DNA of 64,000 bases from Fimbriimonadia bacterium (lineage in GTDB: Bacteria > Armatimonadota > Fimbriimonadia > Fimbriimonadales > JABRVX01), in the NCBI GenBank assembly GCA_041483895.1, contig JBGPGO010000003.1:202792-266791 (forward strand), in the 5' to 3' direction. This document shows positions 54,865-57,868 of the stretch, piece by piece. A program made the position numbers and the translations under genes. Below the pieces are notes generated by a model. It saw nothing but the letters and a program-made list of their open reading frames with translations. It was not told the origin of the DNA and did not search any database. How positions within the stretch are numbered: the first letter of the stretch is position 1; the number at the start of each line of letters is the position of its first letter.

Positions 54865-55049
54865 GTTCCACTCTCCTTTGCTCCCAATTGTACCGGTGGC
54901 GGTTGAGTCCCCTTGCGGCAGAACTACGGTGATGGGTTTGATCCTGATGTCATTGATGTCTCCCACGCACCAGTGCCAGTTTGTGGATCGAGCCTGATCA
55001 AACAGTCTAGCTTTTCGGCGTCCTGGGTCGACAGGTGGCCGATGATCAC

Positions 55050-55104: not shown

Positions 55105-56316
55105 ATGGCACGGTTCGTTTACAACGCCGTGGATCCGCAGGGTCGTACTGTCCGCGGAACCATGGATGCAGACAACGAGGAGTTCGTCCTAGCAAAACTG
55201 CATGAGCAGCAGATGCACGTGACGAACGTAAAGCAGGCACGTGCCGCCTCGGAAGGCAAACGTGGTTTTGGCCCGGCCAAGAAGATAAAGCTCCAGTCGC
55301 TTGTCGTCTTTTCTCGCCAGTTCGCCACGATGATCGACGCGGGTATCCCAATTCTCCGCTGCCTCGACATTCTCCATGGCCAGACAAAGGACCAGATCCT
55401 AAAAGAGACGCTGAACCTGGTTCGCGGAGATGTCAAGGGCGGTATGTCGCTCAACGAAGCGATGGCGAAGCATCCCAGAGTTTTCAGCAAGCTGTACGTC
55501 AACATGATCCGCGCGGCCGAAATCGGCGGTATCTTGGACCTCATCCTGGACCGGCTCTCCCACTTTCTCGAATCGGAAATGGAGATCCGCGGCAAGATCA
55601 AGTCCGCCATGATGTACCCGACGATGGTGTTGTGCGCTTCGTTCTGCATGCTGTTCGCCCTCTTCACGTTCGTCCTCCCGAAATTCAAGGACATCTTCCT
55701 TGGGATGGATGTGGAGCTGCCTGCGATCACGGCGGCCCTGTTCACTATCGGCGACATCTTCCAGGCCTATTGGTGGGCGATTCTGGGAACGATAGCCGGC
55801 GCCTTTTTCGGAATCAAGAGCTACGGGAAGACGAAGAAGGGCCGCTATCACATGGACTACCTGAAACTCCGTGCGCCGATCATTGGCGATCTGAGTCTCA
55901 AGCTCTCGGTGGCACGGTTCTCCCGGACGTTTGGAACGCTCATCGGCAGCGGCGTCCCCATGATGCGGTGCCTGGAAATCACATCGGAAACGAGCGGCAA
56001 CACGGTGTTGGCCGGGGCAATCGATGCGGCAAGAGCGGCGATCCGAGAAGGAAAGCAGCTCAGTCATCCGTTGGCGGCAAGCGGTCTGTTCCCCACGATG
56101 GTAACGCAGATGATCGACATCGGGGAAGAGACCGGTCGGCTCAACGAAATGCTTGTAAAAGTGTCCGACTTCTATGACGCTGAGGTTTCCCAGACGGTCA
56201 AAGGATTGACCTCGATGATAGAACCTCTCCTCATAGTTTTCATGGGCCTGATCGTCGGCTTCATCGCGATCTCGGTCATGACTCCCATCTTCAAGCTGGT
56301 CAACTCAGTCAAGTAA
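55105..56316 (+). CDS. pilC: Type IV pilus / T2SS platform protein (PilC/GspF)
   Basis: FSRQFATMIDAGIP, KIKSAMMYP, RFSRTFGTLIGSGVP, IGEETGRL, SMIEP. Confidence 0.95.
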   Translation: MARFVYNAVDPQGRTVRGTMDADNEEFVLAKLHEQQMHVTNVKQARAASEGKRGFGPAKKIKLQSLVVFSRQFATMIDAGIPILRCLDILHGQTKDQILKETLNLVRGDVKGGMSLNEAMAKHPRVFSKLYVNMIRAAEIGGILDLILDRLSHFLESEMEIRGKIKSAMMYPTMVLCASFCMLFALFTFVLPKFKDIFLGMDVELPAITAALFTIGDIFQAYWWAILGTIAGAFFGIKSYGKTKKGRYHMDYLKLRAPIIGDLSLKLSVARFSRTFGTLIGSGVPMMRCLEITSETSGNTVLAGAIDAARAAIREGKQLSHPLAASGLFPTMVTQMIDIGEETGRLNEMLVKVSDFYDAEVSQTVKGLTSMIEPLLIVFMGLIVGFIAISVMTPIFKLVNSVK

Positions 56317-56339: not shown

Positions 56340-57614
56340 GTGTCTGAATATGTAAGTAAGAGGCATTCACCAGAAGAGCTGGTGGCGGAATACTCGGCAA
56401 ACAAGCGCGCTGATCTGCGGGATGTAATCGTTGCGCACTATGCATCCATGGTGGAGCGGATCGCCCGCAGATTCTCGGGCTCATCGGAGCAGCAAGACGA
56501 TTTGGCACAGGTCGGTTTCATAGGGCTGCTCAATGCGCTGGAGCTCTATGATCCGATGAAGGGTGTCAAGTTCTCGACCTACGCCACGCACCTGGTGGCC
56601 GGGGAGATCAAGCACCACCTCCGCGACAAGAGCAAGATCATCAAAGAGCCCGCGTGGCTCCAAGAGTTGAATCAGCGCATCGATCGTGTCATCCAGGCTT
56701 TATCACAAGAGCTCGGCCGGCAGCCCACGCCGGCCGAGATCGGCGCCAACATGCACATGACCGAGGAGTCGGTGACGGAAGTGCTGATGACGCGCGATAT
56801 CTTCCGGGTGATCTCGCTCGATGGCGTGACGGAAGATGAGGATTCGGACAATCCGTACGATCTGGACAAACTGGAGGCGAAAGAGGAAGCGACCTTCCAC
56901 CTGCCGATTGAAGACAAGATGATGCTGGAAACCGCTGTGATCCAACTCAAGGAGATCGAGCGCAAAGTCATCAATCTGTTCTTCTATGAGAGCCTCAATC
57001 AGACCGAGATCGCCCACGAGCTGCAGATTTCCTGCAACTACGTGTCGCATATTCTGCGGCACTCCATGCAGAAGCTGCGCAAGATTCTAGTGACGGAAGA
57101 CCTGAAAGAGCGGCAGTTGAGAACCCGTCAGCACGTCGCGGAGAAGTCGGATGTGATCGACGAGCAGACGGGCCTGTTTGGGCCGGACTATTTCCAATCG
57201 CGTGTATCCGAAGAGCTACAGCGGGCCTCGCTCAACGATAACCAGGTGGCTGTTGTGGTGGTCCAGTTCGCCGGGCTGGAGCGTCTGCGGAGCTTCTATG
57301 GGGACATGACTGTTGGCGAGTTTATGTCGCAGGCCGCCGCCGCCATCCGGGGCGCGGTGCGGAAGATGGACATTCTTTGCCGCGCTGGGGAGTACGCGTT
57401 CGGGCTTATCTTCCCCTATGTGGAGACGCTGCGCGGGGAGATCGATACGGAGATTTCCGGGATGCTCCACGAATGGATCGGAAGGCTTTTCTCCGCCCAC
57501 AACGAGGTGTCTATCACAGTGGGCCGGGCCGACTCCCCGGACGATGGCCACGCGGCGCGCGAGCTGCTGCACAAGGCATGGAATCCAGCCCCAGCCCTCC
57601 GCCAAGCGGCCTAA
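56340..57614 (+). CDS. SigB/SigF-type sigma factor fused to a degenerate GGDEF domain
   Basis: DDLAQVGFIGLL...KFSTYA...GEIKHHLRD; region 4 HTH QTEIAHELQISCNYVS; DEQTGL...RKMDILCRAGEYAF. Confidence 0.88.
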   Translation: MSEYVSKRHSPEELVAEYSANKRADLRDVIVAHYASMVERIARRFSGSSEQQDDLAQVGFIGLLNALELYDPMKGVKFSTYATHLVAGEIKHHLRDKSKIIKEPAWLQELNQRIDRVIQALSQELGRQPTPAEIGANMHMTEESVTEVLMTRDIFRVISLDGVTEDEDSDNPYDLDKLEAKEEATFHLPIEDKMMLETAVIQLKEIERKVINLFFYESLNQTEIAHELQISCNYVSHILRHSMQKLRKILVTEDLKERQLRTRQHVAEKSDVIDEQTGLFGPDYFQSRVSEELQRASLNDNQVAVVVVQFAGLERLRSFYGDMTVGEFMSQAAAAIRGAVRKMDILCRAGEYAFGLIFPYVETLRGEIDTEISGMLHEWIGRLFSAHNEVSITVGRADSPDDGHAARELLHKAWNPAPALRQAA

Positions 57615-57623
57615 GACTCATGA

Positions 57624-57868
57624 TCCCCTCCTCCGCTTGCGGGGGAGGGTTAGGGTGGGGGTTGCTTCGGTTTCCGTGTTGCGGTCTTTGGAGTCAATGT
57701 GAGATCTGGTATTGGCGGACGAGGACCCCAACACATCGAGGCGTCGCCGCAGTGTCCTCAAATCCCCTCCTCCGCTTGCGGGGGAGGGTGAGGGTGGGGG
57801 CTGATGTGCCGGGGTCCTCGCATTGCATCAACCTTTCTCCCACGAATCCCTACGACCCCGGCACTTCG
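57624..57868. repeat. Mosaic of two palindromic repeat families
   Basis: CCCCTCCTCCGCTTGCGGGGGAGGGT.AGGGTGGGGG twice (57624, 57763), alternating with GGGGTC...GACCCC hairpins (57674-57738, 57803-57868). Confidence 0.88.

Follow-up and report, generated by a model that had tools for sequence, protein, structure and literature searches.

A group-3 sigma factor fused to a catalytically degenerate GGDEF domain behind pilC in Armatimonadota: a candidate c-di-GMP-sensing regulator of motility genes

The GGDEF domains of PelD from Pseudomonas aeruginosa and of PopA from Caulobacter lack the catalytic motif, carry RxxD at the I-site spacing and are reported to bind c-di-GMP through it (PMC2170427, PMC12564702), their outputs being a polysaccharide-synthase partner and a proteolysis adaptor, respectively. 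In PelD the R402A exchange, equivalent to loss of the third arginine of the site, is reported to abolish binding (PMC2170427). The I-site of PleD is described as R359, D362 and R390 together with R313 of a partner domain, and in the product inhibition of PleD and WspR the cross-link immobilises an active cyclase (PMC7288161). Among sigma factors, the RsiG-(c-di-GMP)2-WhiG complex of Streptomyces and Rubrobacter places a group-3 member under the control of c-di-GMP (PMC8325347, PMC12871210); RsiG is a separate coiled-coil anti-sigma factor carrying the motif E(X)3S(X)2R(X)3Q(X)3D, and its partner WhiG belongs to the sigma28 clade. According to PMC8325347, no other sigma/anti-sigma complex is known to be a target of c-di-GMP, a 2026 preprint (PMC12871210) makes much the same claim for sigma28-family factors, and the targets proposed for Rubrobacter WhiG include type IV pilus genes (PMC8325347, PMC12871210). 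Inhibition by c-di-GMP is reported both for WhiG and for the transcription of pilA in Myxococcus (PMC8325347). A further group-3 sigma factor tied to type IV pili is SigF of the cyanobacterium Synechocystis, which drives pilA1 from a promoter with a -12 element GGTAA (PMC2532724). A literature search for a sigma-GGDEF fusion, with subscription journals mostly outside its coverage, returned no description; the parts are known, and their combination is apparently undescribed.

The fusion gene described here lies in the window, the whole 64,000-nucleotide stretch of DNA that was analysed, which belongs to an Armatimonadota genome of the order Fimbriimonadales (labelled G000). It occupies positions 56340-57614 on the forward strand, starts with GTG and encodes 424 amino acids, and its orthologs are full-length. 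Directly ahead of it lies pilC (55105..56316, +), which encodes the type IV pilus platform protein of 403 amino acids (PF00482 twice; top NCBIfam model NF052607 at 414 bits, below its cut-off), and the gap between the pilC stop at 56316 and the fusion start is the 23 nt originally predicted. The complete set of sigma regions that had been claimed was recovered intact, each region above its Pfam cut-off: region 2 (residues 31-99; 56430..56636, +; PF04542, E 1.6e-18), region 3 (residues 109-165; 56664..56834, +; PF04539, E 2.3e-12) and region 4 (residues 202-248; 56943..57083, +; PF04545, E 3e-13). Region 2 begins at residue 31 with no region 1.1, as is found in group 3 of the sigma-70 family, and H92 and R95 within it are invariant in 92/92 sequences; in region 4 the recognition helix S-x-N-Y-x-S is conserved, with S231, N233 and Y234 each present in 90/92. 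The predicted SigB/F type is the nearest sigma family, and formal membership is not reached: the top NCBIfam model was TIGR02980 (SigB/F/G) at 193.3 bits against a cut-off of 234.35, two orthologs scored 182.6 and 178.8 bits and also fell below it, the second-ranked model was PRK07408 (cyanobacterial SigF) at 163 bits against 261, and the FliA/WhiG model TIGR02479 gave 127 bits against 189.6. The top Foldseek match among crystal and cryo-EM structures was SigB of Staphylococcus aureus (8x6g).

Behind region 4 comes a linker (57084..57155, +) that is predicted to continue the region 4 helix and then to form a loop, and that varies in length across the family, the spacing from L246 to D274 ranging from 19 to 45 residues in 92 sequences. 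It leads into a degenerate GGDEF domain (residues 273-413; 57156..57578, +), whose predicted fold was borne out by PF00990 (E 2e-14; 54.1 bits against a cut-off of 23.8) and by an AlphaFold model of region 4, linker and GGDEF domain built on 81 sequences (pLDDT 89.6; linker helix at 41-75), which matched the solved GGDEF domain 4urs at Z 18.8 (rmsd 2.9, 145 residues aligned) and PleD 1w25 at Z 16.9 (rmsd 3.0, 144 aligned). In coordinates, Pfam domains and fold match, the observation behind the original prediction is thus confirmed as a whole. The protein ends, as do many orthologs, in Ala-Ala (57600-57611), an ending that we take to resemble ClpXP degradation signals. Two REP-like GC-rich palindromic repeats of ~40 nt (57623-57665 and 57762-57800) lie 3' of the gene, with 75 blastn matches across the genome, partial ones counted; on the minus strand, an ORF6N-domain gene resembling phage antirepressors (53213-53881) stands amid housekeeping genes; and Rfam detected no riboswitch in the window.

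The GGDEF domain had been read as catalytically dead with a retained RxxD site, and both parts of this reading held in a comparison with PleD based on a 90-on-90-residue match with an offset of +18, the correspondences being read from the match ranges and not from a displayed alignment: R295 (57222..57224, +) corresponds to R313, R341 to R359, D344 to D362 and GEYAF to GGEEF. By sequence comparison the active-site motif has decayed to G350-E-Y-A-F354 (57387..57401, +) and the metal-binding DxD is replaced by Q309-F-A311, so that, with Q309 at the metal aspartate, the residues of an active diguanylate cyclase are not present. The motif R341-K-M-D344 (57360..57371, +) ends five residues ahead of GEYAF, with its arginine and aspartate nine and six positions N-terminal of the GGDEF position, which is the canonical I-site spacing, and R295 stands at the position of the secondary, cross-linking arginine of PleD-type dimers. 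The third primary I-site residue (R390 in PleD, R402 in PelD), overlooked in the original prediction, is Glu371 in the window's protein, at the end of the stretch from R365 to E371 (57432..57452, +); active cyclases have the arginine of their AER motif at position 371. Most family members retain the third arginine and in this resemble PelD and PopA, but the window's copy does not: position 371 is Arg in 87 of the 92 sequences, Leu in G001, G002 and one more, Asn in one, and Glu in the window's protein alone. Of six near kin, five carry R365 without R371 and the sixth carries R371 without R365. This swap was probably one evolutionary event, and the gain of R365 hints at compensation, possibly as a substitute for the lost third arginine.

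Different parts of the fusion show different levels of conservation. In the alignment of 92 sequences from 91-92 genomes, to which G127 contributed two copies, mean identity was 60% for sigma region 2, 59% for region 4 and 32% for the GGDEF domain. Both R341 and D344 occur in 92/92, so that the RxxD conservation for which a check had been proposed was found throughout the family, and R295 is Arg in 87/92; together with R371 these positions hold rate ranks 5-8 of 141 sites, in the near-tied slowest class, whereas the positions matching PleD D327, K332, N335, H340, D344 and E370 hold ranks 90-118 of 141. The four I-site positions, all of which correspond to residues of PleD/WspR product inhibition (PMC7288161), are shown by these rates to be under purifying selection, across a family tree that spans about 50 substitutions per site. 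The catalytic motif has drifted over the same tree, with a GG[D/E]EF-type motif intact in 0/78 orthologs, 63 distinct pentapeptides at that position and again 0/117 intact in further orthologs matched by pattern, and RxxD was found in 119/119 further database proteins (117 by pattern, 2 read from sequences). Even in family f8, a very diverged fusion, the R-D-R triad is kept in 5/6 members; RxxD has been lost from L413, also of f8. R288, E291, E292, D274 and T277 are conserved as strongly as the I-site residues and could form an alternative protein-binding face.

An RxxD in a lone sequence is weak evidence for c-di-GMP binding, because it is also found in 26 of the 29 best-scoring active cyclases in the phylum; RxxD with the third arginine occurs in 13/29, and the R390 equivalent in just 16/29. 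The five other GGDEF domains of G000, with motifs GG[D/E]EF or GGEQF, carry RxxD in 3/5 cases. In a control set picked by similarity to the query, and hence biased, intact domains had RxxD in 80/83 cases and the R295 equivalent in 76/83, and degenerate domains had them in 54/63 and 51/63; these residues are therefore partly ancestral consensus, being common in intact and degenerate domains alike. What is informative, and the strong part of the evidence, is that the family has kept RxxD invariant and its pocket as a whole even as the catalytic residues decayed.

The fusion is widespread within Armatimonadota. A search by domain architecture, which had been suggested as a check, recovered it phylum-wide, with orthologs in 38 of 41 relatives and a single ORF in 20/20 order loci; 268 of 301 phylum genomes matched the profile at 1e-40, unfused paralogs included, and among the best 150 matches 149 extend to model position 369 or further. 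Family f35 has an ortholog of about 260 aa that is not fused, and unfused members of the sigma subfamily were seen at L094, L415-L419 (family f35) and L096 (G075). G127 has two fusion copies (L086 and L087), one adjoining pilC and the other detached. A single-protein scan of genome contigs gave no match to the fusion, a metagenome scan gave one partial contig in which the GGDEF part was absent, and database names for family proteins are just 'sigma-B factor' or 'sigma-70 family'.

Linkage to pilus genes recurs across these loci. The ortholog has pilC immediately 5' in 40/40 order loci, and pilC is present in 63/78 ortholog loci, a set that overlaps the 40 and in which flank sizes vary; the run pilM-N-O-Q-B-T-C is closed by the fusion gene in 10/20 long loci, single run members being undetected in three of them. 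Orthologs are mostly last in the pilus operon or in a pilC-sigma pair; the gene is divergent from pilT-pilC in family f16 and detached, without any conserved neighbour, in families f11, f30, f18 and f12. No conserved partner genes apart from pil genes were found near orthologs, nor any conserved anti-sigma gene, and no RsiG was seen among these neighbours. In G000 the remaining pil genes lie elsewhere in the genome, flagellins are also present, and a separate FliA/WhiG sigma gene stands at C1:362241, as such a gene does in 38/41 relatives. The RLG residues form the motif of the MshEN domain; the G000 PilB closest to the operon-linked PilB (C17:12560-14329) has an MshEN domain without them, and a PilB-like protein (C6:92861-94612) retains them. 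Genome-wide, a prepilin N-terminal motif is seen in 45 ORFs of G000, most of which belong to the larger 'FTLIELLVVIAII' type (about 220-300 aa).

Co-occurrence was followed in an author-chosen panel of 80 genomes (22 further candidates left out), of which 21 carry the fusion and 59 lack it, absence being assigned mostly on low profile scores, with G051, f8 and f35 inspected. A close PilC ortholog, defined as 48% identity or more, was present in 14/21 fusion genomes against 10/59 others, and flagellin in 15/21 against 21/59; kin are non-independent and several genomes fragmented, so these counts carry no statistic. GGDEF matches per genome numbered 4-36 (median 10, n=21) in fusion genomes, where the fusion itself may be counted as one, against a median of 2 (n=59) in the others, and the fusion was absent from 9/9 GGDEF-free genomes. 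Among the 41 relatives, fusion and flagellin are absent from the same three genomes; the order genomes G021, G036, G037, G231, G278 and G283 have no fusion, linked PilC, flagellin or putative major pilin; and similar joint absences occur in families f11, f12, f25, f29 and f30. The joint-absence pattern and the panel contrast hold without G036. Exceptions run both ways, as G083 and G118 carry the fusion without close PilC or flagellin, f27, f36, f17 and f6 carry flagellin without the fusion, and in f11 and f30 the fusion persists despite an absent close PilC ortholog. Orthologs thus tend to be lost jointly with linked PilC, flagellin and most cyclases. The proposed tie to type IV pilus or lifestyle genes stands as far as pilC linkage goes and has to be widened beyond pili alone, to a broader motility network that includes flagellin and a sigma28-like promoter.

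That promoter is suggested by a sigma28-like -10 element, GCCGATGAT (55038..55046, +), which lies 66 nt 5' of the pilC start with no TAAA -35 element and probably serves the pilC-sigma unit as its promoter. Among 41 regions upstream of pilC, 7 were excluded since pilT abuts pilC; in the remaining 34 order loci CCGAnnAT occurred 40-110 nt 5' of pilC in 28, compared with 101/3604 genes of G000. The same element precedes flagellin genes in 14/31 cases, with TAAA at 7/15 such sites, and it stands before the fusion gene itself in 6/18 loci where pilC is detached against 1/39 where it is attached. At L231, pilC is preceded by a perfect TAAA-N16-GCCGATAA, the sigma28 consensus as quoted in PMC8325347. 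TAAA accompanies the pilC CCGAnnAT sites in 1/30 cases, and CCGAnnAT may have another reader than FliA/WhiG; a G000-wide scan for CCGAnnAT[CT] upstream of genes found no enrichment (41, compared with 48 for the reverse strand). Reading of CCGAnnAT by the fusion itself was downgraded, as the element is common to flagellin genes and most of the genomes examined have a FliA/WhiG gene.

A second element was found at the putative major pilin gene, where TGGAA occurs 35-135 nt upstream in 25/30 loci against a background of 492/3604, making RTGGAA a candidate -10 element for the fusion sigma; the pilin site of G000 itself reads TGGCAT. RTGGAA resembles the GGTAA element of SigF at pilA1, and the fusion stays below the cut-off of the SigF model. 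Cyanobacterial SigF is not known to carry a fused sensor. G000 also has CsrA, a protein that binds GGA motifs, and GGA lies in a hairpin loop in 5/25 pilin loci. RTGGAA upstream of pilM (10/30) was rejected, as these matches look like part of the preceding gene's coding region, and autoregulation through TGGAA was not supported (8/41 pilC regions against a 14% background). A pilin-derived matrix yielded no interpretable or wider regulon in G000, and Rfam on 20 of the 30 pilin loci gave no riboswitch, just a tRNA fragment. A short pilin pair with conserved TGGAA upstream was seen at C6:13222-13978 (-) in G000 and at L349-L378, often with a GCGGGG...CCCGT hairpin ahead of the ribosome-binding site; the pair is missing from the same order genomes that are without linked PilC.

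Taken together, the family is best read, by a modest preference, as a group-3 sigma factor with a catalytically dead GGDEF domain in which c-di-GMP at the I-site would switch off the protein's own transcription of motility genes. Family members would very probably bind an intercalated c-di-GMP dimer through R341, D344 and R371, as judged from pocket conservation; the window's copy would, on a slight balance in favour, also bind, probably more weakly and perhaps by way of R365. Binding would then quite plausibly change sigma activity directly. The CCGAnnAT promoter shared with flagellin genes, together with its sigma28 match, points to a FliA/WhiG-type sigma28 as the probable transcriber of the pilC-sigma unit. 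More tentatively, two copies could be joined in the manner of PleD, with ligand in the I-site of one contacting R295 of the other, and the resulting dimer could be held off RNA polymerase at high c-di-GMP. This bridged inhibitory dimer is suggested because the cross-linking arginine is kept, the linker spans 19-45 residues and c-di-GMP is inhibitory in the known analogs. A linker of such variable length suits a tethered domain better than a relay of fixed register. Since the fusion has no catalytic site, the cross-link, which in PleD immobilises a cyclase, would here act on the attached sigma factor. A complex prediction with two copies of region 4 plus GGDEF and four c-di-GMP scored 0.10 against a mark of 0.42, a score that speaks neither for nor against the dimer. 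A similarly tentative target is the gene of the putative major pilin, for which RTGGAA would serve as the -10 element. Inhibition as the direction of regulation is inferred by analogy. The originally predicted one-component, c-di-GMP-regulated sigma factor is favoured by the single ORF, the dead catalytic site, the slowly evolving I-site positions and the cyclase-rich genomes, and is weakened by the absence of the third I-site arginine here and in the closest kin.

The same I-site conservation would serve the opposite direction, in which the empty GGDEF domain acts as a built-in anti-sigma on region 2 or region 4 and the ligand releases it, giving pili at high c-di-GMP. The conserved R288/E291/E292/R295 helix face could dock onto a sigma domain, a conserved anti-sigma gene was not found among ortholog neighbours, and c-di-GMP is reported to promote Vibrio pilus extension through MshE (PMC8325347); with the MshEN RLG residues missing from the best-matching PilB of G000, such control could have shifted to transcription. 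Activation is nevertheless considered unlikely, as the unit lies behind a sigma28-like promoter and is lost along with flagellin, and the full-length model (pTM 0.38) shows no domain packing with confidence. The usual effect of c-di-GMP on flagellar motility is inhibitory, which also counts against it.

A role without direct effect on RNA polymerase binding, in which ligand binding would direct the protein to the cell pole, to the pilus machinery or to a protease, would follow PopA, where RxxD is described as serving localisation and proteolysis (PMC12564702). The Ala-Ala terminus of the window's protein and many orthologs and the position of the gene beside that of the membrane platform PilC are compatible with such an adaptor, which is judged improbable, given that pil genes are the sole conserved neighbours and the fusion persists in f11 and f30 without a close PilC ortholog. 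Loss of sensing, at least in this lineage, would leave RxxD as an inherited or structural feature of a dimerisation or protein-binding module; E371 in the window's copy, Leu in G001 and G002, the commonness of RxxD among GGDEF domains generally and the unfused f35 ortholog all lean this way. Against it stand R341 in 92/92 and R371 in 87/92 over ~50 substitutions per site, when the R390 equivalent occurs in just 16/29 active cyclases, and the fact that the fusion genomes are the cyclase-rich ones, so that loss of sensing, too, is very doubtful.

Under the preferred reading of inhibition by c-di-GMP, the fusion differs from PelD and PopA in having a sigma factor as its output, and from RsiG-WhiG in that the candidate sensor is a fused GGDEF domain in place of a separate anti-sigma, on a sigma factor nearer to SigB/F/G with a FliA/WhiG gene alongside. 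On balance we lean toward a one-component c-di-GMP-sensing sigma factor of Armatimonadota that, with no anti-sigma, may gate the pilin tier of a sigma28 to sigma-GGDEF cascade at RTGGAA promoters. The family provides its own natural controls in the window's copy, which adds a natural loss of the third pocket arginine, in L413, which has lost RxxD, and in the unfused f35 orthologs. If true, the fusion would represent a second, independently evolved route from c-di-GMP to promoter choice, contained within a single, easily purified polypeptide.
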